Shown here: positions 3,027 through 58,188 of the stretch, piece by piece
Numbering within the stretch: the stretch's first letter is position 1
How the letters are laid out: every line of letters starts with the position of its first letter
Origin: Actinomycetota bacterium
GTDB lineage: Bacteria; Actinomycetota; UBA4738; CALAEC01
NCBI GenBank assembly: GCA_036001425.1
Contig: DASYUI010000015.1
Coordinates: forward strand, 9,520 to 73,519
Reading direction: 5' to 3'
DNA length: 64,000 nt
The notes under the pieces: generated by a model
What the model saw: only the letters and a program-made list of their open reading frames with translations
The model's database searches: none
Told to the model about the DNA's origin: nothing
Position numbers and translations under genes: made by a program

Positions 3027-3028
3027 TC

Positions 3029-10245: not shown

Positions 10246-12189
10246 ATGACCCAGACCCCGACAGTGTGGCGCCCCAGTCACGACTACCTCGAGCGGGCCA
10301 ACGTGACCAGGTTCATGCGGGCTCACGGCATCGAGACGTACGAGGACCTGATCCGCCGGTCGCGGGAGGACATCGAGTGGTTCTGGGCCGCGGTCGTCGA
10401 GGATCTCGGCATCGAGTTCTTCACGCCGTGGGAACGGGTCCTCGACACCAGCGACGGGATCCCCTGGGCGAAGTGGTTCGTCGGCGGCACCACCAACCTC
10501 GCCCACAACTGCGTGGACAAGTGGGCCGAGCGGACACCGGACGCGGTAGCGGTCATCTGGGAGGGAGAGGACGGGGCGGTTCGGCGCGTGACCTACGTGG
10601 AGCTCCGGGAGATGGCCGACCGGCTTGCCGCCGGGCTTCGCTCGCTGGGCGTGGGCCGCGGCGATGCGGTGGGCATCTTCTTGCCCATGGCTCCGGAGAC
10701 CGTGGCCGCCACCCTAGCCACTGCGAAGCTCGGCGCGGTCTACCTCCCGATCTTTTCGGGGTACGCGCCCGATGCGGTGGCGGCCCGGCTCGCCGACGCC
10801 GACGCCAAGGTGCTCCTCACGGCCGATGGGTTCCTTCGGCGGGGCCAGGCGGTACGGATGAAGGAGGTCGCCGATGCGGCGGCCGACCAGGTGTCGTCGG
10901 TGAAGCACGTCGTGACGTGGCGGCGCCTCGGCCGCGGCGACGTTCCGTCCGGCGAGCGCGACGTTGACTGGGAGGAGCTGTGCGCAGGACAGCCCGGCCG
11001 GTTCGAGACCGTTCCGCTCGACACCGAGCATCCCCTGTTCGTCGCGTACACGAGCGGGACGACCGGCCGGCCGAAAGGCTCGGTCCATGTCCACGGGGGG
11101 TTCACGGTGAAGATCGCGGAGGAGGTCGCGTACCAGACGGACCTCCACCGGGGCGAGATCCTCTTCTGGGTCACGGACCTGGGGTGGATCATGGGCCCGT
11201 GGGAGATCGTGGGCGCCGGCGCGCTCGGCGCCGCGGTCTTCCTCTACGAAGGTGCGCCCAACCATCCCGAGCCCGACCGCATCTGGTCCATCGTCGAACG
11301 ACACGGGATCACGACCCTCGGCGTCTCCCCCACCCTGATCCGGGCGCTCATCCCGGCCGGTGACGAGTGGGTCGAAAAGCACGACCTTTCCTCGCTCCGC
11401 ATCATCGGCTCGACCGGCGAGCCCTGGAATCCCGAACCGTACCTGTGGCTGTTCGAGAAGGTCGGCGGGGGCCGGTGCCCGATCATCAACATCTCCGGAG
11501 GAACGGAGGTGGGCGCGTGCTTTCTGTCCCCGCTCCCGATCACGGACCTGAAGCCGTGCACGTTGCGAGGGCCCGCCCTGGGGATGGCCGTGGAGGTATG
11601 GGGCCCCGACGGGACACCGGTGCCCCGGGGCGAGGTCGGCGAGCTCGTGTGCACCAAGCCGTGGCCCGCCATGACCCGAGGGATCTGGCGCGACCCCGAC
11701 CGCTACCTCGAGACCTACTGGTCGCGGTTCCCGGACGTGTGGGTCCACGGCGACTGGGCCTCGATCGACGAGGACGGCTTCTGGTTCCTCCACGGGCGCT
11801 CCGACGACACCATCAAGGTCGCCGGAAAGCGGGTCGGCCCGGCGGAGGTGGAATCCGCACTCGTCGATCACCCCGCGGTGGCCGAGTCCGCCGCTGTCGG
11901 CGTTCCCCACGAGGTCAAGGGCGAGACCATCTGGTGCTTTGTGGTGACCAAGCCCGGCAGCGCCACGGACGACACCCTGGGCGCCGAGCTCAAGCAGGTC
12001 GTCGCCGCCCACCTGGGGAAGGCCTTCACCCCGGCGCGGATCGTGTTCGTCGACGAGCTACCGAGGACCCGCTCCGCGAAGATCCTCCGCCGGGCCATCC
12101 GGGCCACAGTGGCGGGCGAGGACCCCGGTGACCTTTCGAGCCTGGAGAACCCCATCGCGATCGAGAAGATCCGGGCGGCGGTGGACTGA
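10246..12189 (+). CDS. AMP-forming acyl-CoA synthetase, acetyl-CoA synthetase family
   Basis: 647 aa. AMP-binding motif YTSGTTGRPKG. C-terminal PRTRSAKILRR corresponds to the regulatory Lys region of Acs enzymes. Substrate not assignable from sequence alone. Confidence 0.85.
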   Translation: MTQTPTVWRPSHDYLERANVTRFMRAHGIETYEDLIRRSREDIEWFWAAVVEDLGIEFFTPWERVLDTSDGIPWAKWFVGGTTNLAHNCVDKWAERTPDAVAVIWEGEDGAVRRVTYVELREMADRLAAGLRSLGVGRGDAVGIFLPMAPETVAATLATAKLGAVYLPIFSGYAPDAVAARLADADAKVLLTADGFLRRGQAVRMKEVADAAADQVSSVKHVVTWRRLGRGDVPSGERDVDWEELCAGQPGRFETVPLDTEHPLFVAYTSGTTGRPKGSVHVHGGFTVKIAEEVAYQTDLHRGEILFWVTDLGWIMGPWEIVGAGALGAAVFLYEGAPNHPEPDRIWSIVERHGITTLGVSPTLIRALIPAGDEWVEKHDLSSLRIIGSTGEPWNPEPYLWLFEKVGGGRCPIINISGGTEVGACFLSPLPITDLKPCTLRGPALGMAVEVWGPDGTPVPRGEVGELVCTKPWPAMTRGIWRDPDRYLETYWSRFPDVWVHGDWASIDEDGFWFLHGRSDDTIKVAGKRVGPAEVESALVDHPAVAESAAVGVPHEVKGETIWCFVVTKPGSATDDTLGAELKQVVAAHLGKAFTPARIVFVDELPRTRSAKILRRAIRATVAGEDPGDLSSLENPIAIEKIRAAVD

Positions 12190-16664: not shown

Positions 16665-17849
16665 TCAGGTGGGCCGGCGGACGATCAGGGCATCGCCCTG
16701 TCCGCCCCCACCACACAGAGCGGCGCCGCCGAGGTCCACGCCGCGACGGCGCATCTCGTAGGCGAGGGTGAGGACCAACCGGGCGCCGGTCATCCCGATG
16801 GGGTGCCCCAGCGCCACGGCGCCGCCGTTCACGTTGACGATCTCCTCGTCGAGGCCGAGCATCCGGCTCGCGTGGAGCGACACCGACGCGAACGCCTCGT
16901 TGATCTCGACGAGCCCGAGGTCCGACGCGGAGGCCCCCGCCTTCTTCAGCGCCCGTTCCATGGCGATGGCCGGGACGGTGTGGAGGTAGGGGAACCGCTC
17001 GGCGCTCATCCCGTGCGCCACGATCTCGACGATCGGTTCGATGCCCAGCGCCTCGGCCCGCTCCCGGCTCATCACCACGACCGCCGCTCCGCCGTCGGAG
17101 ATCTGAGAAGCGTTCCCTGCCGTGATGGTCCCATCGTCGCCGAACGCAGGCTTGAGCCTGGACAGGGACTCCGCAGTGGTGTCGGGACGGATCCCCTCGT
17201 CGCGCTCGACGCGGGCGGGGTCGCCCTTGGGCCGCGGCGCCTCGACGGCAACGCTCTCCTCCGCGAGCCGACCCTCTTCCCACGCCGCGTGGGCCCGCTG
17301 GTGCGAGCGCGCCGCCCAGGCGTCCTGCTCCTCGCGACCGATGCCCAGCTCGTTGTTCACCTCGTCCGAGGACGCTCCCATCGACTCGCCGGTGAACGTG
17401 GAATGCAGCCCGTCGTAGAGCATGGCGTCCACGATCTCGGTGTTCCCGAGCCGCGCTCCCCACCTGGCATTGGGGAGGAGGTAGGGGGCGTCGCTCATCG
17501 ACTCGAACCCACCTGCCACCGCCACCTCGATCTCCCCCGCTCTGATCAGCTGGTCGGCCAAGGCGATCGCGTTCAGGCCGGAGAGGCAGACCTTGTTGAT
17601 CGTGACCGCCGGGACCTCCTTGGGGATCCCGGCCTTGATGGCCGCCTGGCGAGCCGTGATCTGGCCGGCCCCGGCCTGGATCACGTGGCCCATGAGCACG
17701 TAGTCGACCTGGTCGCGAGGGACGGCAACACGGGCCAGGGCCTCACGGATGGCGGCGGCCCCGAGGTCGACCGCCGGAACGTCCCGGAAGCCGCCGCCGA
17801 ACCTGCCGATCGGCGTCCGGGCCCCGGCCACGATGACGGAGGTGCTCAC
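16665..17849 (-). CDS. acetyl-CoA C-acetyltransferase (degradative/biosynthetic thiolase)
   Basis: 394 aa with all canonical catalytic residues: NKVCLSGL (nucleophile Cys), GHPIGMTGARL (His), ALCGGGGQG (second Cys). Confidence 0.9.
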   Translation of the reverse strand: MSTSVIVAGARTPIGRFGGGFRDVPAVDLGAAAIREALARVAVPRDQVDYVLMGHVIQAGAGQITARQAAIKAGIPKEVPAVTINKVCLSGLNAIALADQLIRAGEIEVAVAGGFESMSDAPYLLPNARWGARLGNTEIVDAMLYDGLHSTFTGESMGASSDEVNNELGIGREEQDAWAARSHQRAHAAWEEGRLAEESVAVEAPRPKGDPARVERDEGIRPDTTAESLSRLKPAFGDDGTITAGNASQISDGGAAVVVMSRERAEALGIEPIVEIVAHGMSAERFPYLHTVPAIAMERALKKAGASASDLGLVEINEAFASVSLHASRMLGLDEEIVNVNGGAVALGHPIGMTGARLVLTLAYEMRRRGVDLGGAALCGGGGQGDALIVRRPT

Positions 17850-20477: not shown

Positions 20478-20921
20478 GTGCTCGAGGACATCGACCACGT
20501 GGGCATCGCCGTCCTGGACCTCGCGGCTACGGTTGAGCGCTACCGGAAGGCCTTCGGCATCGAGCCGGTTCACTGGGAGACCGTGGCAGACCAGGGAGTG
20601 GAGGAAGTCCTGTTCCAGGCGGGGAGGTCCTTCATCCAGCTGCTGGGGGCCCTGGGGCCCGACACTCCCGTCGGCCGGTTCCTGGACAAGCGAGGCGAGA
20701 GCCTCCACCACGTCGGCTACCGGGTCCGGGACGTGGCCGCAGCGCTGGCTCGGCTCAAGGAGCTCGGGGTACCGCTGGTGGACGAGACCCCCCGCCCGGG
20801 GTCTCGAGGGACCACGGTCGCGTTCGTCCATCCCAAGGGGATGGGCGGGGTGCTCGTGGAGCTGGTCCAGCAGGGGGTCCAGGGGGGCAGCAGCCCCGCG
20901 AGGCGAAGCCGAGCGGAATAA
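20478..20921 (+). CDS. mce: methylmalonyl-CoA epimerase (VOC/glyoxalase fold), C-terminal 15 aa encoded by repeat copy 3
   Basis: 147 aa. IDHVGIAVLDL...ESLHHVGYRV...GGVLVELVQ is the typical epimerase pattern. The ORF has no stop before module A and ends at a TAA inside module C. Confidence 0.85.
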   Translation: MLEDIDHVGIAVLDLAATVERYRKAFGIEPVHWETVADQGVEEVLFQAGRSFIQLLGALGPDTPVGRFLDKRGESLHHVGYRVRDVAAALARLKELGVPLVDETPRPGSRGTTVAFVHPKGMGGVLVELVQQGVQGGSSPARRSRAE

Positions 20922-20985
20922 GGCTGCTGCGTTCCCCCCTGGCCGAAGGATGCTGCCGAAGGCAGCTGACTGAGGAAGGAGAACG
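20873..20985 (+). repeat. modular intergenic hairpin repeat, copy 3 (A-C-D)
   Basis: GGGGGTCCAGGGGGG CAGCAGCCCCGCGAGGCGAAGCCGAGCGGAATAAGGCTGCTGCGTTCCCCCCTGG CCGAAGGATGCTGCCGAAGGCAGCTGACTGAGGAAGGAGAA. Confidence 0.85.
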
Positions 20986-24262: not shown

Positions 24263-24375
24263 GGGGGTCCAGGGGGCGAGCAGCCCCGCGAAGCGCAGCG
24301 CAGCGGACCAGGCTGCTCGAGTCCCCCTGGCCGAAGCGCCTCGCCGAAGGCGAGGGGCTGAGGAAGATGAAGGAG
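24263..24375 (+). repeat. modular intergenic hairpin repeat, copy 4 (A-C-D)
   Basis: Starts 1 nt after the TAA at 24259-24261: GGGGGTCCAGGGGG CGAGCAGCCCCGCGAAGCGCAGCGCAGCGGACCAGGCTGCTCGAGTCCCCCTGG CCGAAGCGCCTCGCCGAAGGCGAGGGGCTGAGGAAGATGAAGGAG. Confidence 0.85.
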
Positions 24376-38027: not shown

Positions 38028-41000
38028 TCAGGGTACTCCCACGAGGGCAGTGCGCACCTGATCGGGCTCGACGAAGGCGCGCCGGTAGCCGATGCGCTCC
38101 AGCCGCTGCTGCGCCTCGTTCATGGCGCCGTCTCCACCCACCGCGTCCGGGCCGAAGAAGGTGCCCGTCCACCACGTGGACAGGTCGCGAGAGATCGAGT
38201 CGCCCTGCTTCCGCTCGATCTCCAAGGCCTCGGTGGCCAGCTCTCGCGCCGTCTCCTCGTCGCCGTCGGCTACCCCCACCAGCGCCCGGGCCCACAACAC
38301 CGCGGTGCGGTCCCCCGGCCCCTCGTACGCCGGCGGAAGCGACGGGTCCTCGATCAGCTGGCGGGCCTCGGTGAGGTTCCCCCGCATCAGGAGGACGGTG
38401 GCCAGCTCCGACGCCGTCCAGGCCACCAGTACGCGGTCACCCAGCTGCCGACAGAGCTCCAACGACTCCCGGAGGTCCCGCTCCGCCTCGGCCAGGCGCC
38501 CAGACAACCGGTGGGTCGAGCCCCGATCGCCGAGGGCGGATGCCAACTCCCACCGAGCGCCGAGGTCGCGGTAGGTCCGGACTGCCTCGTCGGAGGCGGC
38601 GAAGGCCTCCTCCAGCCGCCACATCGCCCGGAGGGGGCTGGCCCGCCGCTCGTTCGCCGTGGCGATGGTGAAGGGGTCCCTCATCTCCCGTCCCAGGGCC
38701 AGGGCCTGGTCGGCGACCTCCAGGGCGGCGGCCGGCCCCTTCCGCCCGGAGATCGAGGCCAGGGCGACGAGGGCACGGGCCTCCGCCCACCGGTCTCCCT
38801 TCGGGTTCTCCCGAGCGATCTGGAGCGCTTCCTCGAACGCCGCTCGGGCCCCTTCGAGGTCGTCTCGCCAGTACGGCACCCAGCCCGCCATGAGCAGGGT
38901 CCGGGCCATCGCCCACTCGTCCCCGAGCTCTCGGGCGGCCTCGAGCGCCTGATCGAACAGCTCACCGGCCCCGTCGGGGTCCCCCCGGATGTTGAGGAGG
39001 ATGTCGGCCAGGAATCGCAGCGCCATCGCCCTCGTCCCCGCGTCGTCTCCGCCGACCTCCAGGGCCCGCCGCAGGCTCTCCTCCGCGGGGTCGTACTCGC
39101 CCAGCCAGTACCTGCTCTCCCCCATCCCGGCCAGGATCCGGGACTCCTCGGTTCCCCAGGCATCTTCGGCTCCTGCCATGGCAAGCGCCCGTTCGTACAG
39201 GTCGATGGCCGCCCGGGCCTCCATCCGCCACCGAGCCAGGTCCCCGGCTCGCCGGAGGGCGGCCACCGCCCGCCGACGCGGCTCGGGGTCCGCGGGGTCC
39301 AGGTCGAGGGCCGCTCTCGCAGCCTCCTCGAGGTGATAGGCGATCTGGCGAGCGTGCTCGGTGGCGCCGAGGGAACCGAGTCCCTCCGCGAGGCGCTCGT
39401 GGAGACGCCGCCGATCCCGCTTGGCCAGTGACTCGTAGGCCACGTCGCGAAGCAGCTCGTGGCGGAACCGCCACCGCCCCGGCCGGTCCTCGTCTCGGAC
39501 GATGACCTCCTCGTCCGCGAGCTTCCGCAGCACCTCGGGGTCCACCTCCGTGACCAGCGCCAGCCGGGACTCGTGGAACGCGCTCCCCGGAAACACCGAG
39601 GCGATCCGGAAGAGGTTCCGCGCGGTCTCCGGGAGGTGGTCGAGGCGCGAGGCCACCACCGCCTGGACGGTCGGGGGCAACATGCCGTCGGTACGCGGTC
39701 CGTGCGGGACCTCCGTGCGTTCGTGAAGCAGCATGCCGGTCGTCTCGACGATGAAGAACGGGTTCCCTCCCGCCTGCCGCGCCACCCGGTCGGCCGTCTC
39801 CTCATCGAGGGACTCCCCCGCGGCCTTGGCCAGCTCCTTGGCGTCCTCCAGGCCGAGCGCCTCGAGCCGGATGGTGAGGGCGTCCGCGTGGGCGGACGCC
39901 CACTGCGGCCTGCTTCCCAGCGGCTCCTCTCGACCAACCGCCACCACCAGGACGGGCAGGCGGCGAACCTCGCGAAGCACTTCTTCCATCATCTCGAACA
40001 GAGCGGGCCGGCCCAGGTGGAGATCCTCCAAGACGACCACGACCGGGCCCGAATGGGCCATGGCGCCGAGGAATGCGGCCAGGCCCGCCCGGATCTCGGC
40101 GCTGCGGTAGGGGGTCTGCTGGCGGCTGTCCTCCCCCAGACCGAGGAGGAGCCCGAGCCGGGCGGCCACCTGCTCCACCTCGGAGGGATCGCAGCACCCC
40201 GCCACGAGCTCTTCGAGCAGCCCACGGAGCTTCTCCTGGTCGGGTTCCGCTTCGACGCCCAGCCTTCGGCGGATCATGTCGGCCAGGGCCGCGAACGACG
40301 GTTCCTCGTGGAATTCGCTGTCCCGCCCGATCAGGACCTCGGTTCCTTCCGGGAGCCCGGCCAGAAGTTCCTCGACCAGTCGGCCCTTCCCGATCCCCCG
40401 CTCGCCGAGGATCGTGACCAGGTGCGCCCGGGAGGTCTCGCGAGCGCGCTCGAACGTCCCGGTGAGGAGGGCCATCTCCCTGCGCCGGCCGACCAGGGGG
40501 ATGGTTCGCCGGGAGGACCGAGGGGTCAGGGAGCGAACCGGCCGAGCCACCACCGGCTCTTCGAACCCCTTGGCCTCGAAGTCATGGGGCTCTCCGAACT
40601 CCGCCGAGTGCCTGGTCAGCTGCCACGTCGTGTCGCCCACGAGCACCTCGCCCGGGTCGGCGACCTGCTGGAGGCGGGCGGCGAGGTTGACCGTGGATCC
40701 CGAGACCAGGAACTCACCCGCCAGCGAGGCGCCCGTGACCACAGGTCCGGTGTTGACTCCCACCCGGACCGCCAGCGGCTCGGGAAGGCCCACGCGTTCG
40801 CCCAACCGGGCGGTGCGATCCCTGATCGAGAGCCCGGCGCGGACCGCGCGCAGGGCGTCGTCCTCGTGCGCGAAGGGCAACCCGAACACGGCCATCACCG
40901 CGTCGCCGACGAACTTCTCGGTCTGCCCCCGGAGCGCCTCCACCTCGTCCGAGGCCGAGCGATAGAACTCCGCGAGCACTTCCCGGAACCGCTCCGGGTC

Positions 41001-41261
41001 CAGGCTCGCTGCGAGCTCGGTGGAGCGGGACAGGTCGGCGAACAGCACCGTCACCACCTTGCGCTCCTCGCCGAGCCCCTCGGGCACGACCGGCCAGCCG
41101 CACGACGGGCAGAACCGGGCGTCCTCGGGAAGCGGGGAGCGGCAGCGGCCGCACACCGGCTGGCTCACGTTCAGAGCATACGGGACACGAAGCCGACCGG
41201 GCGGACGCGAAAAGCCAGGCCAGTCCGGTCCTTGACGCTGATCCACTGGATATGCCAGCAT
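38028..41261 (-). CDS. zinc-ribbon / class III adenylate-guanylate cyclase / AAA(STAND-like) NTPase / TPR multidomain protein
   Basis: 1077 aa. CGRCRSPLPEDARFCPSCG ribbon. Cyclase core VTVLFADLSRST...KFVGDAVMAVFG...VRVGVNTGPVV...GSTVNLAARL. P-loop-like GERGIGKGR (nt 40380-40406). The C-terminal ~450 aa are TPR-like. Start uncertain (41261 or a downstream GTG). Confidence 0.85.
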   Translation of the reverse strand: MLAYPVDQRQGPDWPGFSRPPGRLRVPYALNVSQPVCGRCRSPLPEDARFCPSCGWPVVPEGLGEERKVVTVLFADLSRSTELAASLDPERFREVLAEFYRSASDEVEALRGQTEKFVGDAVMAVFGLPFAHEDDALRAVRAGLSIRDRTARLGERVGLPEPLAVRVGVNTGPVVTGASLAGEFLVSGSTVNLAARLQQVADPGEVLVGDTTWQLTRHSAEFGEPHDFEAKGFEEPVVARPVRSLTPRSSRRTIPLVGRRREMALLTGTFERARETSRAHLVTILGERGIGKGRLVEELLAGLPEGTEVLIGRDSEFHEEPSFAALADMIRRRLGVEAEPDQEKLRGLLEELVAGCCDPSEVEQVAARLGLLLGLGEDSRQQTPYRSAEIRAGLAAFLGAMAHSGPVVVVLEDLHLGRPALFEMMEEVLREVRRLPVLVVAVGREEPLGSRPQWASAHADALTIRLEALGLEDAKELAKAAGESLDEETADRVARQAGGNPFFIVETTGMLLHERTEVPHGPRTDGMLPPTVQAVVASRLDHLPETARNLFRIASVFPGSAFHESRLALVTEVDPEVLRKLADEEVIVRDEDRPGRWRFRHELLRDVAYESLAKRDRRRLHERLAEGLGSLGATEHARQIAYHLEEAARAALDLDPADPEPRRRAVAALRRAGDLARWRMEARAAIDLYERALAMAGAEDAWGTEESRILAGMGESRYWLGEYDPAEESLRRALEVGGDDAGTRAMALRFLADILLNIRGDPDGAGELFDQALEAARELGDEWAMARTLLMAGWVPYWRDDLEGARAAFEEALQIARENPKGDRWAEARALVALASISGRKGPAAALEVADQALALGREMRDPFTIATANERRASPLRAMWRLEEAFAASDEAVRTYRDLGARWELASALGDRGSTHRLSGRLAEAERDLRESLELCRQLGDRVLVAWTASELATVLLMRGNLTEARQLIEDPSLPPAYEGPGDRTAVLWARALVGVADGDEETARELATEALEIERKQGDSISRDLSTWWTGTFFGPDAVGGDGAMNEAQQRLERIGYRRAFVEPDQVRTALVGVP

Positions 41262-41267
41262 ACCTAT

Positions 41268-41525
41268 GTGAAGCGCACCACGGTGAAGCTGCCAGAGGAA
41301 TTCGACGCTCGGTTGCGTAAGGAGGCGGAGCTCCGGCAGACCACCGTGAGCGCCCTGGTCAGGGAGGCGATCGAGCAGTTCCTCGTGGGCCGTCCGCGTC
41401 GGCGTCGACGGCTACCCTTCACGGGATTGTTTGCCAGCGGATACACGGACACTAGTGAACGGGTCGACGAAATCCTCGCCGAGATCTTCGAGGATCAGTT
41501 CGGACGCGGTCGTCCTCGACACTAG
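41268..41525 (+). CDS. vapB: ribbon-helix-helix (CopG/VapB-type) antitoxin
   Basis: Only the last 85 codons of the 688-aa antisense track ORF. VKRTTVKLPEEFDARLRKEAELRQTTVSALVREAIEQFL is a canonical RHH. Start GTG at 41268 or 41283. Confidence 0.6.
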   Translation: MKRTTVKLPEEFDARLRKEAELRQTTVSALVREAIEQFLVGRPRRRRRLPFTGLFASGYTDTSERVDEILAEIFEDQFGRGRPRH

Positions 41526-41916
41526 CGTCCTGTACGCCGACGCGGACCGCTCCGACACCCATCATGTCCGTTGCCGCCGGCTGCTGGAGAGAACCCCTGG
41601 GCCGTTGCTGGTGCCCACGCTCGTCGTGGGAGAGATCACCTACCTGCTGGCACGCCGGCACGGGCCACATGCGGAGGCCGTCTTCCTGGCATCGCTGGCG
41701 GCAGCGGAGCTCCTGGTCGAGCATCCAACGCAGCGGGACATGGTACGGATAGCTCAGCTGGTGTGGACGTACAAAGACCTCCCACTGGGAACCGTGGACG
41801 CGTCGATCGTGGCTCTGGCCGAGCGGTTGAAGGTGGCGACCATCGCCACATTGGATCGGCTCCATTTCTCGGTCGTTCGGCCCCGACACGTGGCTGCCTT
41901 TGAACTCGTCCCGTAG
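41455..41916 (+). CDS. vapC: PIN domain toxin
   Basis: VVLDTSVLYADAD...VGEITYLL...GTVDASIVALAERL...IATLD carries the PIN acidic residues. Start uncertain (TTG 41431 or GTG 41455). Overlaps the vapB end. Confidence 0.7.
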   Translation: MNGSTKSSPRSSRISSDAVVLDTSVLYADADRSDTHHVRCRRLLERTPGPLLVPTLVVGEITYLLARRHGPHAEAVFLASLAAAELLVEHPTQRDMVRIAQLVWTYKDLPLGTVDASIVALAERLKVATIATLDRLHFSVVRPRHVAAFELVP

Positions 41917-41990: not shown

Positions 41991-42461
41991 TCACCCGGCT
42001 GGAACCGGGCGAAAGCCCTTGATGTCGAGGATCGATCCGGTTCGGTACCGCTTCTGCTTGAGCACCGCCTCGACCACCTGGCCGATCTCCAGGGTGTCCG
42101 CGTCGAGGAGGAAGTGCGCGAGCACGGTGTCGGCTCCCTCCAGGCGCACCAGCCCCAGGACCACCGGCTCGTCGAGAGGCTCGCCCTCCACCCCCACGTA
42201 CCCCACCGTGAAGGACTCCACCCTCCCCCGGGGTCCCACCACCGTGTCCGGGTCCAGTCGCGAGAAGCACCGCTCACAGAACAGCCGGGCCGGGCAATAC
42301 GTGAGGCCGCAGGACTCGCACCGCGAGGCGAGGAACTCTCCTCGCTCCTTGAGCGCCCGGAAGAACGCCTCGCCCGCCACACCGGGCGTGTACCGGTGGG
42401 CGACGGGGATCTGCCCCTCCCACAGGCGGACGTCCCTGGGGTCGCTGATCTTCTCGAGCAC
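41991..42461 (-). CDS. DUF35 (zinc ribbon + OB fold) protein, copy 2
   Basis: Trimmed to GTG at 42461 (1-nt overlap with the upstream TAG). CESCGLTYCPARLFCERC ribbon followed by OB-fold-like ...VESFTVGYV...GLVRLEG.... Confidence 0.8.
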   Translation of the reverse strand: MLEKISDPRDVRLWEGQIPVAHRYTPGVAGEAFFRALKERGEFLASRCESCGLTYCPARLFCERCFSRLDPDTVVGPRGRVESFTVGYVGVEGEPLDEPVVLGLVRLEGADTVLAHFLLDADTLEIGQVVEAVLKQKRYRTGSILDIKGFRPVPAG

Positions 42462-43093
42462 TATTTGATCCTCGAAGCGGCCTTGCGAGGCCGGGTCGAC
42501 TTCCGCGCCGGCCGCCCCCGCGTGCTCTGCAGCTTCGGATCCCGAGGCCGGAAGTACTCGATATCGAGGATGGAGCCCTCTCGTTCGGACTGCGGCCTCC
42601 ACACCGCCTCGACCTCCAGCCCTATGCGCACGGCGTCCGGATCGACCTCGCCGAGCTTGTGCATGATGCCGATGCCCGGGGAAGCACCGTCGATCTCGAT
42701 GACCGCCGGCAGCTCGGGGACCTTCAGCGGCTGCATGTCCCAGGAGACCCAGCAGATCGAGAAGGTGTTCACCCTGCCGGTGTCTTCCACCTGGACCCAG
42801 CGATCGGTGGGACGGAAGCACTGCTCGCAGAACATCCGGGGGGGCACGAGGACCCGGCGGCACCCGCGGCACTCCCGGGCCAGCACCCGTCCTTCACGCA
42901 GCCCCGCCAGGAACCGGCCCACGGCGATGCCGGTGTCCCATCCGTAGCGGGCGTCGACGGCGAAGTCGACCGCGCCGAGGGCGTCGCGGAACTCCTGCTC
43001 GCGAAGGGGCTGCGGGCCCAGGAGGCGCGAAGGCTCGGTCGCCCTGGCGGCCTGCGACGAACGGGGAACCGGTCGCAGCTTCCTTCTGGCCAC
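42461..43093 (-). CDS. DUF35 (zinc ribbon + OB fold) protein, copy 1, with basic C-terminal tail
   Basis: Trimmed to GTG at 43093 (SD GGGGAGG, 2 nt after the thiolase-like TAG). CRGCRRVLVPPRMFCEQC ribbon. Tail PRDPKLQSTRGRPARKSTRPRKAASRIK. Confidence 0.8.
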   Translation of the reverse strand: MARRKLRPVPRSSQAARATEPSRLLGPQPLREQEFRDALGAVDFAVDARYGWDTGIAVGRFLAGLREGRVLARECRGCRRVLVPPRMFCEQCFRPTDRWVQVEDTGRVNTFSICWVSWDMQPLKVPELPAVIEIDGASPGIGIMHKLGEVDPDAVRIGLEVEAVWRPQSEREGSILDIEYFRPRDPKLQSTRGRPARKSTRPRKAASRIK

Positions 43094-43095
43094 CG

Positions 43096-44259
43096 CTACC
43101 TCCCCATGACGACCACTGTTCCCACCTGCATGAGGTCGCCCCACGCCTGGGCCACGCCCCTCCGGGGATCGCCGGGCACCTGCCGGTCCCCGGCCTCTCC
43201 GCGCAGCTGCCAGAAGAGCTCGGCGATCTTCATGAGCCCCGCCGCGGCGATCGGGTTGCCCACGCCGAGCAGACCTCCCGATGGGCACGACGGCAGATCG
43301 CCGTCGCGGTCGAGCACGCCGTCGCGCATGGCTTCGGGCGCCTTCCCCTTGTCGAAGAGGAGCAACCCCTCCAGGTGATGGAGCTCCTTGTAGTCGAACG
43401 GGTCGTATGGCTCCGCGACGTGGATCTCCTTACGCGGCTCCCGGATCCCGGCCATGTCGTACGCCATCCGGGCCGCGTACTCCACGTAGTCGGGGTAGTA
43501 GAGGTCGCGGTTCGTCCAGTAGGCGGTGTCGAGGTGCCAGCCCACGCCGTCGATCCACACCGGCCGGTCGGTCAGCCGCTTCGCAACGTGCTCGGCGGCG
43601 AGGACCACCGCGACCGCTCCGTCGCTCACGGGAGAGACGTCGAGGCGCTGCACCGGCCAGGCCAGCACCTCGGAGTTGAGGACGTCGTCGACGGTGATGT
43701 CCGCCTGCCCGAGGAGGGCCGCCGGATGGCCGGCGGCGTTTCGCTTGTTCTTGACCGAGACCGCTGCGACGTCGCGCTTGTCGAGACCGTGCACCGACAT
43801 GTACCGGTTCATCTCCAGGGCGAAGATCCACAGGAGGTTCGGGCCCAGCGGCCGTTCCAGGATGCTGTCGAAGATGGTGATGAACGCCCCCTGCGCGTGT
43901 GGCATCGTGGACGACATCTTCTCCTCCGCCACGACGAGGGCCACGTCGAACATGCCCGAGGCAACGAGATACCAGCCCTGGATGGTGACGAACACGCCGG
44001 TCCCGCCACCGACGTACGTGCGGAAGAACGGCTTGCCGTAGGCCCCACTCCCGTCCGAGAGGTACTCGCCCTTCATGTGGACCCCGTCGAACGCGTCCGG
44101 GGCTGTGCCCAGAGCGACCGCGTCGACGTCGGCCAGGGTCAGGGAGGCGGAGTCAAGGGCCGCCCGCGCGGCCTCCCAGGACAGCTCCTTGCCGGTCTCC
44201 TGGGCCCGGCGGACGAACCTCGTCATCCCCGCCCCGACCACGGCCACCCGCTGCCCCAT
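43096..44259 (-). CDS. thiolase-fold protein lacking canonical Cys/His/Cys residues (SCP-x/Ltp-like), copy 2
   Basis: 387 aa. MGQRVAVVGAGMTRF... thiolase-like N-terminus. The nucleophile region reads YVGGGTGVF (no Cys). GGLLGVGNPIAAAG stands where thiolases have GHP. The only Cys is in LPSCPSGG. Confidence 0.85.
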   Translation of the reverse strand: MGQRVAVVGAGMTRFVRRAQETGKELSWEAARAALDSASLTLADVDAVALGTAPDAFDGVHMKGEYLSDGSGAYGKPFFRTYVGGGTGVFVTIQGWYLVASGMFDVALVVAEEKMSSTMPHAQGAFITIFDSILERPLGPNLLWIFALEMNRYMSVHGLDKRDVAAVSVKNKRNAAGHPAALLGQADITVDDVLNSEVLAWPVQRLDVSPVSDGAVAVVLAAEHVAKRLTDRPVWIDGVGWHLDTAYWTNRDLYYPDYVEYAARMAYDMAGIREPRKEIHVAEPYDPFDYKELHHLEGLLLFDKGKAPEAMRDGVLDRDGDLPSCPSGGLLGVGNPIAAAGLMKIAELFWQLRGEAGDRQVPGDPRRGVAQAWGDLMQVGTVVVMGR

Positions 44260-44639
44260 CAGGAATGGTCTTCCGCGTGTCGGGGAAAGTGCTCGATCAG
44301 CTCGACGCGGTTGCCGTCTGGGTCACGGAAGGTGGCGAACCGCGCGAAGCCCTCGACCTCTCCGGAATGCTCGTCGAAGGCGACGCCCTTCTCCTGCATC
44401 GTCCGCCGCGCGAGATCCAGGTCCTCCACACGGAACATGACGGCTGCCCCGCCCGATCCCATCGGGTGACCCTCCACCGCGCCGTGCAGGGCGAATCGAA
44501 CGGGCTCGGTGGCGAACTCCGCCCACTGAGGCCCGTCCTGGCGCACAAGCCTCAACCCGACGACGTCGCGATAGAAGGCCACCGCACGATCCATGTCCGC
44601 GGTCCAGTAGTAGACGTAGTCGATGGGCCCCACGTCCAT
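44259..44639 (-). CDS. VOC (glyoxalase/bleomycin resistance/dioxygenase) family protein
   Basis: Trimmed to ATG at 44639 (126 aa; MDVGPIDYVYYWTADMDRAVAFYRDVVGL...FRDPDGNRVELIE). TGATG overlaps at both ends. Confidence 0.8.
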   Translation of the reverse strand: MDVGPIDYVYYWTADMDRAVAFYRDVVGLRLVRQDGPQWAEFATEPVRFALHGAVEGHPMGSGGAAVMFRVEDLDLARRTMQEKGVAFDEHSGEVEGFARFATFRDPDGNRVELIEHFPRHAEDHS

Positions 44640-45805
44640 CACGTCATCACCTCGTCGGAGGCGAACACCGCGACGGCGGCGCTCGTGGTGGGAACGCCCC
44701 GCCACGACTGGGCCACCGCCACGCCGGCGTCCTCCACCTGCCGCTCGCCGGCCTCTTCCCGCAGCTGGAGGACGCATTCCATCGCCTTGGCCAGCCCGTT
44801 GGCCTCGAACAGGTTCCCCTGGCCGAGCGATCCGCCGGACACGTTCACCGGCAGCTCGCCGTCGCGGCCGAAGTACCCTTCCTCGAGCATGGGCCCGGCC
44901 GCTCCGGGACGGGAGAGCCGAAGGGCCTCGATCGACATCAGCTCGCGGTACGAGTACAGGTCGTCCACCTCGGCCAGATCCACGTCACGAGGTGGGGAAG
45001 AGACGCCGGCCAGGTGGTAGGCGCGGTCCGCGGCCGCTCGTACGTAGTCCGCGGCTCCCCACTGCCGGCTCTCCAGGCTCGGGCTTCCCGACGACCACCC
45101 GACCCCAACGATCCACACCGGCAGGTCCGTGAGGTCCCGGGCCCGGTCCTCGTCCGCGAGCACCAACACGATGGCACCGTCGGCCCGTTCCGAGACGTCG
45201 AGACGCTTCAACGGCCACCACAGCGGATCGGATTCAGCCACGTCCTCCGCGGCGACCTCGGTCGGATACGCGGCTCGCGGGTTGTCCAGGGCGTTCCTGC
45301 GATTCTTCTCGACCACGAGTGCGCACTGTTCCTCGGTGCTCCCCGAGGTTTCGAGATAGGACGTCATCTCCAGCCCCGCCACCGCGAGCGGCGACACATC
45401 GAGCGGACGGTTGAGCACCGGGTCCAGCGCGAACTGGTGGATGTGACCCAGCGTGACGATGTCCGACGCTTTGCTGTGGCCTTCGACCACCACGACCCCC
45501 GCCGCTCCGGAACGGATCAACATGACCGCCGTGGCGATCCCATACAGACCATCCCCGGAAACGGTGTGGACGGGCCGCAGTGCCGCTCCCAGTTGGTCGG
45601 GCACGTATTCGTCGAAGATCGAGGTGCCCTCCCAGAAGTCCTCCGAGACCGCGACGAAGGAGTCCACGTCTCGCCGGGGATCGATCCTGGCGTCGTCGTA
45701 GGCCCGAAGCGCAGCCTCGAAGGTCTGCTCCTTGTACGAGAGGCCTGCGGTGATGGGGGCGAATCCAGCGTGCCCCACCCCGACGATGGCGACACGGTCA
45801 CCCAT
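44639..45805 (-). CDS. thiolase-fold protein lacking canonical Cys/His/Cys residues, copy 1
   Basis: 388 aa. MGDRVAIVGVGHAGF.... The nucleophile region reads HTVSGDGLYG (no Cys). GGSLGQGNLFEANG replaces the GHP block. No C-terminal CxG Cys. Confidence 0.85.
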   Translation of the reverse strand: MGDRVAIVGVGHAGFAPITAGLSYKEQTFEAALRAYDDARIDPRRDVDSFVAVSEDFWEGTSIFDEYVPDQLGAALRPVHTVSGDGLYGIATAVMLIRSGAAGVVVVEGHSKASDIVTLGHIHQFALDPVLNRPLDVSPLAVAGLEMTSYLETSGSTEEQCALVVEKNRRNALDNPRAAYPTEVAAEDVAESDPLWWPLKRLDVSERADGAIVLVLADEDRARDLTDLPVWIVGVGWSSGSPSLESRQWGAADYVRAAADRAYHLAGVSSPPRDVDLAEVDDLYSYRELMSIEALRLSRPGAAGPMLEEGYFGRDGELPVNVSGGSLGQGNLFEANGLAKAMECVLQLREEAGERQVEDAGVAVAQSWRGVPTTSAAVAVFASDEVMT

Positions 45806-45810
45806 GTTCC

Positions 45811-45919
45811 CTCTTCCTTATCTGCTTCCTCAGCCCCTCGCCTTCGGCGAGGCGCTTCGGCCAGGGGGAATGCAGCAGCCTGATCCGCTCCGCGGGGCTG
45901 CTGCCCCCCTGGACCCCCT
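45811..45919 (-). repeat. modular intergenic hairpin repeat, copy 5 (A-short C-D)
   Basis: In element orientation: GGGGGTCCAGGGGGG CAGCAGCCCCGCGGAGCGGATCAGGCTGCTGCATTCCCCCTGG CCGAAGCGCCTCGCCGAAGGCGAGGGGCTGAGGAAGCAGATAAGGAAGAGGG, then the ATG at 45805. Module A starts 14 nt after the GNAT TAG (45934-45936; spacer 45920-45933). Confidence 0.85.
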
Positions 45920-45933
45920 GGAGCGGCGGCAGT

Positions 45934-49149: not shown

Positions 49150-49318
49150 GGGGTCCAAGGGGGAAGCAGCGGGGCCCCCGCGGATCGCAGCGAGCGGAGC
49201 GAGCGAGATCCGTGGGGTGCCAAGCAGCCCCGCGAGGCGGAGCCGAGCGGATCAGGCTGTTTCATTTCCCCTGGCCGAAGCGCTTGCCGGAGGCGAGGGG
49301 CTGAGGATGGGAAAAGAG
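49150..49318 (+). repeat. modular intergenic hairpin repeat, copy 6 (A-B-C-D)
   Basis: Begins directly after the accA TAG (49147-49149): GGGGGTCCAAGGGGG..CCCCCGCGGATCGCAGCGAGCGGAGCGAGCGAGATCCGTGGGG..AGCAGCCCCGCGAGGCGGAGCCGAGCGGATCAGGCTG..CCCCTGGCCGAAGCGCTTGCCGGAGGCGAGGGGCTGAGGATGGG. Confidence 0.85.
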
Positions 49319-53747: not shown

Positions 53748-53759
53748 GGATGCGATCCC

Positions 53760-54161
53760 TTGAAGCGGACCTCCGAGTTCGGAAGCCTGTACAAGGGTCG
53801 GGAGGGCCAGTGGTCCTGGATCGCCCACCGGGTGACCGGGGTCGGCATCCTGGCCTTTCTCTTCGTTCACATCGTCGACACCGCGCTGGTGGCATGGGGC
53901 CCGAGCGCCTACAACAAGGTCGTCGCGGTCTATCACCATCCGATCATCCAGATGATGGAGCTCGGCCTGGTGGGGGCGGTCATCTACCACGCGCTCAACG
54001 GGATCCGCATCATGATCATCGACTTCTGGCCGAGAGCCTCCCTCTACCAGGCTCGCCTGTTCTGGGGGACGGCAACCCTCTTTGCCGCGGCGATGGTCCC
54101 CGTCACCTGGCTGATGGGGACCCGGATCGTGCAGGCCATCCTGAACGAGGGTCTGTTCTGA
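53760..54161 (+). CDS. sdhC: succinate dehydrogenase cytochrome b subunit
   Basis: 133 aa with three TM helices. [21 protein letters not shown] heme-His context. First gene of the cluster. Confidence 0.8.
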
Positions 54162-54580
54162 TGGCGGTGGAAGCCCGTCGGGCCGCCCCCGAGAGGCACC
54201 CTCCGGGGCCGCGCCCCCGCCCCGCCGGGCTCGAGCTGTGGACATGGTTGTTCATGCGCCTGTCGGGGATCGTTCTCCTCTTCCTGGCGGTCGGGCACGT
54301 CCTGATCATGCACGTGATGGAGGACGGCGTGCAGCGAGTCAACTTCGATTTCGTCGCGGAGCGGTGGTCCGGCGGGTTCTGGCGGACCTGGGACTGGCTT
54401 ATGCTCTCGCTCGCCCTCCTGCACGGCCTGGCGGGCCTGCGGGTCATCATCATGGACTACGTCCGGCGGCCCGGCTGGCGACTCGCGTGGAACTCGTTCT
54501 TCGGGGTCATGGGGGTGACCTTGTTCGCCCTGGGCACGATCATCGTCTTCACCTTCGATCCATCCCAGTTCCGTTTCTGA
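54161..54580 (+). CDS. sdhD: succinate dehydrogenase hydrophobic membrane anchor subunit
   Basis: 139 aa. ATG at 54161 in a TGATG overlap with the sdhC stop. [23 protein letters not shown]... three TM helices. Confidence 0.75.
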
Positions 54581-56313
54581 TGACGCAGGTCCACACCTAC
54601 GACGCGGTGATCGTCGGGGCGGGCGGTGCCGGGCTCCGCGCCGCCATCGAGGCCTCTGATCGGGTCCGCACCGCGGTGATCTCCAAGCTCTACCCGACGC
54701 GATCGCACACCGGGACGGCGCAGGGAGGGATGTGCGCGGCGCTGGGCAACGTCGAGGAAGACTCTCCGGAATGGCACACCTTCGACACCGTGAAGGGAGG
54801 GGACTACCTCGTGGATCAGCCCGCCGCGGACGTGATGTGCCGGGAGGCCATCGACGCGGTCATCGAGCTCGAGCACTGGGGCTTCCCCTTCAACCGCACG
54901 CCTGAGGGGAAGATCGACCAGCGCCGGTTCGGCGGGCACACCCGCAACCACGGTGAGGCGCCGGTCCGACGGGCCTGTTACGCGGCCGACCGGACCGGAC
55001 ACATGATCCTTCAGACCCTGTACCAGCAGTGCATCAAGCGCGACGTCCGGTTCTTCAACGAGTTCTACGTGCTCGATCTCGTCCTCGAGGATGGCCGGGC
55101 CGCCGGAGTAGTCGCCTACGAGCTGGCTACCGGGGAGCTGCACGTGTTCCGGGCCAAGGCCGTCCTCTTCGCGACGGGAGGCTACGGAAAGATCTTCAAG
55201 ATCACCTCCAACGCCCACACCCTCACCGGCGACGGCCTCGGCGTGTGCTATCGGCGGGGCATCCCCCTCGAGGACATGGAGTTCTTCCAGTTCCACCCGA
55301 CCGGCATCTACAAGATGGGGATCCTCATCTCCGAGGCCGTGCGGGGCGAGGGTGGCATCCTCCTCAACGGCGAGGAGGAGCGGTTCATGGAGCGTTACGC
55401 CCCGACGATCAAGGACCTGGCCCCCCGTGACATGATCGCCCGGGCCATATACCACGAGATCCACGAGGGCCGCGGGGTTGGAGGCAAGGACTACGTGCAC
55501 CTCGACGTCCGCCACCTGGACCCAGAGATCATCGAGAAGAAGCTGCCCGACGTCACCGAGTTCGCCCGGATCTATCTGGGGGTGGAGCCCCTCCGGGAGC
55601 CGATCCCCATCCAGCCCACGGCGCACTACGGGATGGGGGGGATCCCCACCGATGTGGACGGCCGGGTGGTGCTCGGAGAGGCCGAGAAGCCAGTGCCCGG
55701 GCTCTACGCCGGCGGAGAGTGCGCGTGCGTCTCGGTGCATGGGGCCAACCGACTCGGGACGAACTCACTCCTCGATATCGTGGTGTTCGGCAAGCGAGGC
55801 GGGCGGCATATGGCGGAGTACGCTCAGCAGGCTGGCCTGGCGCAGTTCCCCACGGACCCGGAGCGGCCCACGGGCGAGCTGCTCCACCGGCTCTTGGGCT
55901 CCACAGGAACCGAACGCGTCCCGGAGATCCGGGAGGAGTTGCAGGAGAACATGTCTGACCTGGCGGGGGTGGTGCGCACCGAGGAGAGCGGGCGGAAGAT
56001 GCAGGATATCCTCGACTCCTTGCGAGAGCGGTACGGGCGGGCCGTGGTCCAGGACAAGGGCAAGGTGTACAACACCGACCTCATGGAAGCCGTGGAGCTG
56101 GAGTTCCTCCTCGACTGCGCGGACACTCTGGTGGCCGCGGCTCTGGCCCGGGAAGAGAGCCGGGGGGGGCACTACCGGGAGGACCATCCCCTACGGGACG
56201 ACGATCACTGGCTCCGACACTCCCTGGCCTATCGCGAGCCGGACGGGTCCGTGCGCCTGGAGTACAAGCCGGTGAAGCTCGGCGCGTACGTGCCCATGGA
56301 GCGGAAGTACTGA
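54580..56313 (+). CDS. sdhA: succinate dehydrogenase flavoprotein subunit
   Basis: 577 aa. ATG at 54580 in a TGATG overlap. [16 protein letters not shown]..., SHTGTAQGG (FAD-His), HPTGIY..., [24 protein letters not shown]. Confidence 0.9.
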
Positions 56314-58022
56314 TGGAGACGATCGCTCACGACATCGTCATCGTGGGGGGTGGGGGTGCGGGTCTCCGGGCGGCCATCGCTGCCGCAGAGGTCTCGGATG
56401 CGCTGAGCATCGCCCTGGTGTCCAAGGTCTACCCGATGCGCAGCCACACCGTGTCAGCCGAGGGGGGTGCGGGAGCGGTCGTCCGGGAGGACGATAGCCT
56501 CGACCTCCACGCCTTCGACACCATCCGCGGAAGCGACTGGCTCGCTGACCAGGACGCAGTGGAGGCCTTCGTCTCCGAGTGCTTTCCGGAGATGATCCGG
56601 CTGGAGCACTGGGGATGTCCGTGGAGCCGGGAACCGGACGGGCGGCTGGCCGTCCGACCCTTCGGCGGGATGAGCGTGCCCAGAACGCTGTTCGCTGCCG
56701 ACAAAACCGGGTTCCACATGCTCCACGCCCTCTTCCAGACCTCCCTGAAGTACGAGCGGATCACCCGCTACGACGAGTTCTTCGTAACGAAGCTCCTGAT
56801 CGAGGACGGCCGGTGCGCGGGTGTGGCCGCCATGGATCTTCGGGACACCGAGGTCAGGTGCATCACCGGGAAGGCCGTCATCCTATGCACCGGTGGCGCC
56901 GGGCGCACCTACTCCTTCACCACCAACGGGGCCATCAAGACGGGCGACGGGATGGCGCTGGCCTACCGGGCGGGCGTCCCCCTCAAGGACATGGAGTTCG
57001 TTCAGTACCATCCGACCGGCCTCCCCGGGACAGGGATCCTCATCACCGAGGCCGCCCGGGGGGAGGGCGGGTACCTGCTGAACAAGGAGGAGAGGCGGTT
57101 CCTCGAGGACTACATCCCGTCGAAGATGGAGCTGGGGCCCCGGGACATCCTGTCCCGGGCGATCATGCAGGAGATCGAGAAGGGCCAGGCGTTCGAAGGG
57201 CCGCATGGGGAGTACGTGCACCTCGACGTCCGCCACCTCGGCGAGGAGACGATCGACAGGAACCTGCCGTTCGTCCGGGAGCTGGCCCGGAACTATGTGG
57301 GGATCGACCCGGTCCACGAGCCCATCCCGGTGCGGCCGGTGGTCCACTACTGGATGGGCGGCATCGACACCGACATCCTGGGCCGGACCCGGCTCCCTGG
57401 CCTGTACGCGGCGGGGGAGGCCGCCTGCGTCAGCATCAACGGCGCCAACCGGCTGGGCTCGAACTCCCTCAGCGAGTGCCTGGTGTTTGGGGCGAGGGCG
57501 GGGAGGCAGGCCGCGGAGGACGCTCTCGACGCAACCGGACCCACGCGGGGTCCCCTCGCGAAGCTCGCCCAGGCCGAACAGGACCGGCTGGTCGGGGACT
57601 ATCTGGACAAGACGGGAGGCCGGGAACGGATCGGCGCGATCCGCCGGGACCTCCAGGCCGCCATGGAGAAGGGAGCCGGCATCTTCCGGACCGAGGAGTC
57701 GCTGAAGGACGCAGTCGAGGAGATCCGCGGACTCCGGGGGCGGTACCGGGACCTGAGCCTCGACGATCACGACCGAGCCTTCAACACCGAGCTGGTGGCG
57801 GCCCTCGAGCTCGGTAACATGCTCGACGTGGCCGAGGCGGTGGTCGCGTCAGGCCTCGAGCGGCGGGAGTCGCGGGGATCCCACACCCGGTCGGATTACC
57901 CCTCCCGCGATGACGATCGGTTCCTGAAGCACAGCCTGGCCTTCGCCACCTCGGAGGGCCCCCGGATCGAGTACGGGGACGTGACGATCACCCGGTGGCC
58001 GCCGGCGGAGCGAGAGTACTAA
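56313..58022 (+). CDS. frdA: fumarate reductase flavoprotein subunit
   Basis: 569 aa. [71 protein letters not shown] and [18 protein letters not shown] closely track E. coli FrdA as I recall it. ATG is in a TGATG overlap with the sdhA stop. Confidence 0.85.
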
Positions 58023-58188
58023 GGGGTCCAGGGGGAAAGTGCCGGGGTCCCCGCGGATCGCAGCGAGCGAAGCGAGCGAGATCCGCGGGGTGTCCAGCAG
58101 CCCCGCGAGGCGAAGCCGAGCGGGTCAAGTCTGCTGCATTCCCCCTGGCCGAAGCGCCTCGCCGAAGGCGAGGGGCTGAGGAAGGAGA
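58023..58188 (+). repeat. modular intergenic hairpin repeat, copy 7 (A-B-C-D), inside the frd cassette
   Basis: Starts directly after the frdA TAA (58020-58022) and ends ~15 nt before the frdBC ATG. Used as the reference copy for module definitions. Confidence 0.85.

Follow-up and report, generated by a model that had tools for sequence, protein, structure and literature searches.

To our knowledge, thiolase-fold enzymes without a catalytic cysteine are known only from steroid side-chain cleavage, in Ltp2, Sal and, by genetics, Ltp3/Ltp4. In Sal and Ltp2, a glycine stands at the site of the thiolase nucleophilic cysteine and its backbone NH binds the substrate hydroxyl; the catalytic base is the tyrosine in the first position of a YDCY (Sal) or YDHF (Ltp2) motif, the role of general acid falls to Cys304 (+2) in Sal and to Tyr344 (+50) in Ltp2, where Sal has Gln352, and the backbone of Gly391 forms part of the oxyanion hole in Sal (PMC12329534). 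Both are homodimers of the SCP2-type thiolase fold with a DUF35 domain as partner, which belongs to a MaoC hydratase (Shy or ChsH2), as in Sal-Shy(DUF35) (PDB 9MYR) and Ltp2-ChsH2(DUF35) (PDB 6OK1). Here we describe an operon in a stretch of 64,000 nucleotides (nt), called the window below, from contig DASYUI010000015.1 of an Actinomycetota bacterium. It encodes two thiolase-like proteins, A and B, two DUF35 proteins, D1 and D2, and a VOC protein. The genes A, B, D1 and D2 are inherited together across bacteria and archaea, and we propose, with about even confidence, that their products form one multi-subunit, Cys-free thiolase-fold enzyme, an aldolase-like C-C lyase or synthase in which B would be catalytic. 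The operon reads as follows, in the order of transcription:

45806-45933, minus strand: operon leader, with one copy of a structured repeat of about 100 nt (45825-45917) and then the ribosome-binding site GGAAGAGGG before A
44639-45805, minus strand: A, thiolase-like protein, 388 amino acids (Pfam Thiolase_C_1, 100.6 bits)
44259-44639, minus strand: VOC (glyoxalase/bleomycin-resistance fold) protein, 126 amino acids (PF00903, 58.9 bits)
43096-44259, minus strand: B, thiolase-like protein, 387 amino acids (Thiolase_N and Thiolase_C_1; NCBIfam PRK06065, 643.8 bits)
42461-43093, minus strand: D1, DUF35 protein, 210 amino acids, GTG start (zf-ChsH2 and OB_ChsH2_C)
41991-42461, minus strand: D2, DUF35 protein, 156 amino acids, GTG start (zf-ChsH2 and OB_ChsH2_C)

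The five genes were confirmed, with their junctions as given in the initial annotation of the stretch. The reading frames overlap in TGATG at 44639 (A/VOC) and at 44259 (VOC/B) and in TAGTG at 42461 (D1/D2), and the B/D1 junction, TAG-cg-GTG, leaves a 2-nt gap (43094-43095), so that translation of the five genes is probably coupled.

We read the catalytic positions of A and B from hidden Markov model (HMM) alignments to solved thiolases and from an alignment with the window's own thiolase (16665-17849), which has the motifs NKVCLSG, NEAF, GHPIGMTG and ALCGGGG. The nucleophile site, a cysteine in 7yvy_A, 7pxp_C and the window thiolase, is Ser83 in A and Gly85 in B; the HDCF motif is replaced by DDLY (281-284) in A and YDPF (285-288) in B; and the histidine of the GHP motif is Asn331 in A and Asn335 in B. 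Neither protein therefore has the cysteine of the CxS loop, the HDCF motif or the GHP histidine of a canonical SCP2/archaeal-type thiolase, and the initial annotation was right that the nucleophile and the GHP histidine are missing from both, as it was about three of the motifs of the window thiolase (NKVCLSG, GHPIGMTG and ALCGGGG). It had also listed the C-terminal cysteine as lost. This holds, with Trp368 in A and Trp373 in B at the position of the cysteine in ALCGGG of the window's type-II thiolase, but tells less than it seemed to: A and B fall in the SCP2/archaeal-type branch, in which the second catalytic cysteine lies within HDCF and not near the C-terminus, so that the HDCF site is the proper comparison.

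A catalytic cysteine or histidine that is present but shifted had been named as a finding that would overturn this reading, and none was found. The sole cysteine of B, Cys325, stands where the VNPSGG motif has Asn, ten positions ahead of the GHP site, and seven of the 70 orthologues have Thr or Ser instead; because it varies in this way, the catalytic residues of B are not merely displaced. The two cysteines of A (161 and 344) are distant in sequence from the catalytic-site positions. Public annotation calls proteins of the A/B type acetyl-CoA acetyltransferase, a label that is very unlikely to be correct because the catalytic residues are missing.

We then compared both proteins with Sal and Ltp2. 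In the alignment of B with CtSal (9myr_A), Tyr285 pairs with Tyr302, Pro287 with Cys304 and Asn335 with Gln352, and Gly374 pairs with a Gly in the CtSal loop that should contain Gly391. B shares with Sal and Ltp2 the Gly that replaces Cys, the Tyr that opens the motif, an amide or Tyr 50 positions further on and a backbone-Gly oxyanion hole. The combination of Gly and first-motif Tyr is found in B only, A having Ser83 and Asp281. The known proton donors are absent from B and equally from A (Leu283, Asn331). Since B has the base, the glycine, the amide and the oxyanion hole but neither known donor, we file it as aldolase-like: its residues suggest that it works like the thiolase-fold retro-aldolases, yet it does not appear to be a member of the Sal/Ltp2 family, which it resembles only weakly in sequence (97 bits for 9myr_A, 83 bits for 6ok1_A). 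Classification by HMM places B in NCBIfam PRK06065 (NF004721; 643.8 bits, cut-off 455), whereas the best full-length NCBIfam match of A, PRK06066 (NF004722), is at 490.1 bits just below the cut-off of 516. Both families are named 'thiolase domain-containing protein', with no function assigned. The proposed kinship with Ltp2 thus stands for the Gly and Tyr of B and falls for the acid.

The two proteins differ in how these positions are conserved. In B, Gly85, Tyr285, Asp286, Pro287, Phe288 and Asn335 are unchanged in 70 of 70 orthologues, and the oxyanion-hole loop Q371-A-W-G374-D375 is unchanged in all 69 sequences that cover it. Among 81 orthologues of A, site 83 is Ala in 34, Ser in 17, Thr in 17, Gly in seven, Pro in three and Cys in three, and site 331 is Asn in 47, His in 18, Tyr in eight and Asp in six; the invariant residues of A are instead Asp281-Asp282 and an acidic segment, E55-Q71, together with His110 and Lys112. 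Median identity to Chloroflexota orthologues is 78% for B, 59% for A, 49% for D1 and 46% for D2, and B reaches 71% against Bathyarchaeia orthologues. Because B is invariant at the key sites and is the more conserved, while A varies there, B is likely the catalytic subunit and A probably a diverged partner or non-canonical subunit.

To follow the genes across genomes, one genome per species was scanned with a seven-sequence alignment of A, giving at least 476 relatives, and 80 loci were retained; 56 of these, with at least 2.9 kb after A, were taken as informative for synteny. B lies directly after A in 55 of the 56, D1 and D2 are both present in 52, and three more carry two DUF35 open reading frames (ORFs). 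The conserved unit is therefore the four genes A-B-D1-D2. The joint conservation of all five genes, put forward as a check in the initial annotation, is borne out for these four and not for the VOC gene, which occurs in 38 of the 80 loci, every one in the actinobacterial branch. It is missing even from a locus (L083) whose protein A is 86% identical and in which A and B are separated by a 106-bp gap (11168-11273). The confinement to one branch and the absence from L083 make the VOC gene an optional, lineage-specific addition and not the embedded, integral partner that it had been taken for.

Carriers of the module are mostly Actinomycetota, Anaerolineae and other Chloroflexota, Bathyarchaeia and Symbiobacterium thermophilum, a cultured species, with isolated loci under other labels; a search of a plasmid collection with B found no orthologue, the best match being 36% identical. 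The flanks differ between phyla. In the window the neighbours are genes for GNAT, BirA, an acyl-CoA carboxylase alpha subunit, an F420-type NADP reductase and methylmalonyl-CoA mutase, and further an opposite-strand VapBC pair, a cyclase-AAA-TPR regulator and an acyl-CoA dehydrogenase; BirA, the mutase, the carboxylase alpha subunit, the regulator and the acyl-CoA dehydrogenase recur in the actinobacterial branch. Chloroflexota loci are flanked by TatA/C, NusB, Asp23, FabG and FabD, a Bathyarchaeota locus by ribosomal protein genes and the Symbiobacterium locus by ABC transporter genes. A-B-D1-D2 therefore travels as a self-contained module. Reading a substrate from the gene neighbourhood was tried and rejected, as the flanks are conserved within a phylum only and are mostly housekeeping genes, in line with the earlier remark that the neighbours do not make the substrate evident.

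Gene fusions suggest which subunits belong together. Both DUF35 proteins pass the zf-ChsH2 and OB_ChsH2_C cut-offs and keep the expected CxxC...CxxC zinc ribbon (CRGC...CEQC in D1, CESC...CERC in D2). The Lys/Arg-rich tail that had been singled out on one of them is present at the C-terminus of D1 (about 186-210) but is not conserved among relatives, and the N-terminal extension of D1 is linker-like. B and D1 share one reading frame in 24 of the 80 loci (L008, L011, L013, L014, L016, L017, L019-L023, L025, L027-L037 and L048), in fusions of about 565-600 amino acids, one per species-level genome. Two proteins, one from L017 (8370-10703) and the more distant P0235 (731 amino acids), are triple B-D1-D2 fusions, and no A-DUF35 fusion was seen among the loci and proteins scanned for fusions. 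These fusions argue that D1 binds B with D2 close by; D1 is thus probably the partner of B, and D2 possibly that of A.

The system closest in make-up is the Ltp3/Ltp4/Rv3521-type module. Its representative in our comparison, which came to light in the search of plasmids with B, is a locus on a Tsukamurella plasmid (L082) with three adjacent genes, for a 309-amino-acid double-DUF35 protein, a PRK07937 'lipid-transfer protein' and a PRK08313 thiolase-like protein. We take this trio to be Rv3521-ltp4-ltp3, going by NCBIfam names, lengths and gene order and not by the M. tuberculosis sequences. As in A-B-D1-D2, two unlike Cys-free thiolase-like genes stand beside two DUF35 units. The larger, PRK08313-type protein carries the signature of B, with Gly for the nucleophilic Cys and the motifs Y-V-P-F and N-P, and the smaller, PRK07937-type protein has HAPF and N-P. 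Of the two units in the double-DUF35 protein, the C-terminal one shares 40% identity with D1, and among the NCBIfam matches of B, PRK08313 ranks second. The families nevertheless differ: B scores 270 bits against the PRK08313 cut-off of 514, and A 101 bits against the PRK07937 cut-off of 419. Moreover, the Ltp3/Ltp4-type module opens with its DUF35 units, fused into one protein, whereas D1 and D2 are encoded separately at the end of the operon; the Ltp3/Ltp4-type module lies in sterol or beta-oxidation clusters, whereas A-B-D1-D2 stands alone; and A keeps a segment that is missing from the Ltp4-type protein. Hence the earlier view of the 2+1+2 composition as an undescribed system needs qualifying. 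Its 2+2 core is covered by PRK06066/PRK06065 and has the make-up of the Ltp3/Ltp4-type module; what stands is that A and B lie below the cut-offs of the Ltp3/Ltp4-type families and that gene order and context differ.

Where reviews and transcriptome papers touch on Ltp3/Ltp4, they describe them as aldol-lyases that cleave the C24 branch of plant sterol side chains. The genetic study behind this role is reportedly that of Wilbrink et al. 2012, as cited by others, and our literature search found no biochemical or structural study of Ltp3/Ltp4. Another thiolase-like/DUF35 arrangement was observed on the Rhodococcus qingshengii plasmid pLP1 (L081, 6090-8688), where a 304-amino-acid degenerate thiolase-N-like 'hypothetical protein' is encoded with a PRK08313-like protein (Y-A-P-F, N-P) and a DUF35 protein, in a cluster that also has two MaoC-type proteins, acyl-CoA dehydrogenases and a CoA-transferase.

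Other thiolase-fold assemblies share single features with the module. In PhlACB and the archaeal thiolase/HMG-CoA (3-hydroxy-3-methylglutaryl-CoA) synthase kind, two different thiolase-superfamily proteins from one operon are held by DUF35; those complexes, however, combine a KAS III (ketoacyl synthase III)/HMG-CoA synthase-like protein with a true, Cys-containing thiolase-like protein and have one DUF35 per pair, whereas here both proteins are SCP2-thiolase-like and without Cys and there are two DUF35 proteins. PhlACB is built as Phl(A2C2)2B4, from separate homodimers of the two thiolase-fold proteins with DUF35 as the bridge, and PhlA is non-catalytic. BbsAB (7PXP) and the ketothiolase-DUF35 pair Saci_1121/1120 likewise join a thiolase-fold subunit to a DUF35 subunit; they are real thiolases with Cys, HDxF and GHP intact, which A and B are not. 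In the PDB, BbsB ranks among the top matches to B (124 bits), and D2 matches the BbsA model weakly. The orphan proteins ST0096 (PDB 4YZO) and TbSLP (5AB4) belong to the same fold branch and lack the nucleophilic Cys, 4YZO having Ser, but 4YZO keeps HDMA and GHP, and TbSLP keeps YDCF, unlike A and B; at 104-127 bits (4YZO) and 24-64 bits (5ab4_A), they are not orthologues of either. A search of the literature on the PRK families, 4YZO/7YVY and Rv3521-3523 found no functional study of the A-B-D1-D2 module.

For the proposed multi-subunit enzyme, we picture the following assembly and reaction. A and B would form a thiolase-type dimer, or each its own dimer; D1 would dock on B, and D2 either on A or next to D1. 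Such a D1-B-A-D2 type of assembly would resemble the alpha-beta-beta-alpha arrangement of ShyDUF35-Sal. B would act on a 3-hydroxyacyl thioester as a retro-aldolase or aldolase and not as a thiolase. With Gly85 in place of Cys, the beta-hydroxyl would have space and a backbone NH to hold it; Tyr285 would be the base that takes the hydroxyl proton; and the thioester enolate would be stabilised by Asn335 and the backbone of Gly374, so that C-C cleavage would yield a carbonyl compound and a shorter acyl-CoA. The proton donor would have to come from elsewhere than Cys(+2) of Sal or Tyr(+50) of Ltp2, the candidates being Asp375, His294/His295, Cys325 and subunit A. A, which keeps the fold, Asp281-Asp282 and the acidic loop 55-71, may shape or complete the site, and the VOC protein may be an optional helper, possibly an isomerase or epimerase acting on substrate or product. 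The heteromeric, Cys-free complex for forming or cleaving C-C bonds that the initial annotation had suggested fits the signature of B, the co-inheritance and the fusions, but the full catalytic definition of Ltp2 and Sal is not found in it.

Several observations weigh against this proposal. The general acid is absent in B, which has Pro287 where Sal has Cys304 and Asn335 where Ltp2 has Tyr344. The flanks compared across phyla hold no conserved neighbour that points to a substrate, and no MaoC-type hydratase or steroid catabolic gene was found in the ORFs scanned (about 30-62 kb of the window) or in the scanned flanks of related loci. The DUF35 domain of Sal and Ltp2 comes from such a hydratase, whereas DUF35 here is free-standing or fused to B and the steroid gene context of Sal/Ltp2 is missing. 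The aldol-lyase role of Ltp3/Ltp4 itself rests on genetics. AlphaFold models were of low confidence, with a mean predicted local distance difference test (pLDDT) score of 34.7 for B (single sequence) and 36.2 for A (35 close homologues), and A-B pairing and separate homodimers are not distinguishable from sequence.

This last point bears on the alternative that A and B form two homodimeric units, A2 with D2 and B2 with D1, perhaps bridged by DUF35 like Phl(A2C2)2B4 or the archaeal thiolase/HMG-CoA synthase complex, which catalyse two successive steps in their own sites. PhlACB, with its separate homodimers and DUF35 bridge, is a precedent, the operon provides one DUF35 per thiolase-like protein, and A has more invariant polar residues (Asp281, Asp282, His110, Lys112 and E55-Q71) than a mere scaffold might need; yet the catalytic-equivalent positions of A vary freely and the DUF35 fusions involve B only, and we hold this arrangement to be rather unlikely. 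We regard as improbable a different enolate chemistry, such as decarboxylation of a malonyl- or methylmalonyl-type thioester, as in the chain-length factor of type II polyketide synthases or in TbSLP. Although TbSLP (YDCF) decarboxylates malonyl-CoA slowly (PMC12329534), B retains Gly374 of the oxyanion hole and Asn335, and methylmalonyl-CoA mutase, the acyl-CoA carboxylase alpha subunit and BirA lie nearby in the actinobacterial branch and FabD and FabG in Chloroflexota, these neighbours are lineage-specific synteny and not common to the phyla. In addition, CtSal, the closest characterised relative at these sites, is without decarboxylation activity (PMC12329534), and an invariant Tyr at the base position suits deprotonation of a hydroxyl better.

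The loss of every canonical catalytic residue in both A and B could also mean that the module is a catalytically dead pseudo-enzyme that binds acyl-CoA or lipid or scaffolds other enzymes, like the DUF35 assemblies in the archaeal fatty-acid synthase complex. DUF35/thiolase cores do recruit further enzymes (a reductase and a dehydratase in the archaeal complex), and PhlA shows that a thiolase-fold subunit can be non-catalytic. A pure scaffold would, however, be unusual in keeping the pocket-equivalent residues of B invariant across bacteria and archaea at 71-78% identity, and no conserved partner enzyme gene adjoins the module; we consider this explanation decidedly improbable. Least credible is a thiolase or acyltransferase with an unconventional nucleophile, either Ser83 of A, for which the KAS III-like Ser-His-Asp enzyme DpsC offers a comparison, or Cys325 of B. 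Ser83 does align with the nucleophilic Cys, and the one cysteine of B is conserved in 63 of 70 orthologues. Site 83, however, is Ala in twice as many orthologues of A (34 of 81) as it is Ser (17 of 81), Cys325 gives way to Thr or Ser in the remaining seven and sits at the VNPSGG Asn rather than at the GHP site ten residues on, and the activating His is missing from both proteins, which makes such a nucleophile highly improbable.

The VOC protein of the window passes the general PF00903 cut-off only and reaches no NCBIfam cut-off. Compared with glyoxalase I, it scores at most 32 bits against the NCBIfam models (cut-offs of at least 120) and at most 44 bits in its best PDB matches, and by eye the position of the first metal-ligand His appears to be Tyr8. 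Methylmalonyl-CoA epimerase, an idea that came from the nearby mutase and carboxylase, was rejected, as no epimerase model matched and the PDB matches were weak; by score and metal-ligand set the protein belongs neither to this family nor to glyoxalase I. A representative search also returned P0133, an A-like protein of 468 amino acids whose C-terminus weakly resembles a VOC protein; it is an A-VOC fusion or else two genes called as one.

Further genes around the operon, and copies of the repeat in its leader, are the following:

38028-41261, minus strand: protein of 1077 amino acids with zinc ribbon, adenylate/guanylate cyclase, AAA ATPase and TPR repeats (domains from the orthologue in L020)
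41271-41525, plus strand: ribbon-helix-helix antitoxin of a VapBC-type pair
41431-41916, plus strand: PIN-domain toxin of the same pair
54238-56313 and 56313-58022, plus strand: two tandem succinate dehydrogenase/fumarate reductase flavoprotein-like genes
45825-45917, 3027-3128 and 6071-6174, minus strand: copies of the dispersed repeat of about 100 nt, from a covariance-model search of the window
20874-20978, 24264-24366, 49207-49309 and 58080-58184, plus strand: further copies from the same search
8-139 bp upstream of A, same strand, in L044, L050, L054, L055, L056, L060 and L068: HpcH/HpaI-type gene

In 21 actinobacterial loci, a gene of the same type as 38028-41261 follows immediately after the operon, and the protein could be a regulator. 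The VapBC-type pair sits between the end of D2 and this gene and is not present in L083. The flavoprotein-like tandem is preceded by a gene for a cytochrome-b-type subunit (53750-54580). The HpcH/HpaI-type gene, found upstream of A in seven Chloroflexota loci, encodes an aldolase or citrate-lyase-beta-like protein (malyl-/citramalyl-CoA lyase fold); it is a possible hint at acyl-CoA aldol chemistry and is not conserved elsewhere.

The repeat occurs in seven copies in the window. Two hairpins are predicted in it, with compensatory changes at seven base pairs, and its 3' end, CUGAGGAAG, pairs in part within the second hairpin. In the three copies checked (before A at 45805, the ORF at 3026 and the ORF at 58204), the repeat ends 0-19 nt upstream of a start codon; one copy sits between convergent genes. 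L083 carries two copies (9893-9994 and 11169-11268), the latter filling the gap between A and B. The repeat was not found within 7 kb on either side of a locus whose A is 92% identical (L001), which makes it variable or mobile. Possible identities are a leader element and a repeat of the miniature inverted-repeat transposable element or repetitive extragenic palindrome kind that bears a ribosome-binding site. A promoter and terminator scan gave nothing useful, and an Rfam scan of 41-47 kb of the window, a stretch that holds only the copy at 45825-45917, gave no match.

The aldolase-like, multi-subunit enzyme proposed here may have a wider meaning. We put forward only tentatively, as a doubtful but attractive possibility, that A-B-D1-D2 serves general, non-steroid metabolism as a previously unrecognised, self-contained C-C lyase or synthase. 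The enzyme would occur in hundreds of species, from Actinomycetota, Chloroflexota, Bathyarchaeia and other groups, and in it B would have a new active site (Gly85/Tyr285/Asn335/Gly374, with a donor unlike that of Sal/Ltp2) and would need A and two DUF35 proteins. The identity of B across phyla and the inheritance of the module as a unit suggest a constrained function that has no assigned activity, and Symbiobacterium thermophilum carries the module in a genome assembly, which leaves this function open to experiment. The core signature of the steroid side-chain enzymes, present here in organisms and contexts without steroid catabolism, would give Cys-free thiolase-fold chemistry a wider scope, and, if the proposal is true, such a C-C lyase could explain a reaction to which no enzyme is yet assigned in these lineages, most of them uncultured.

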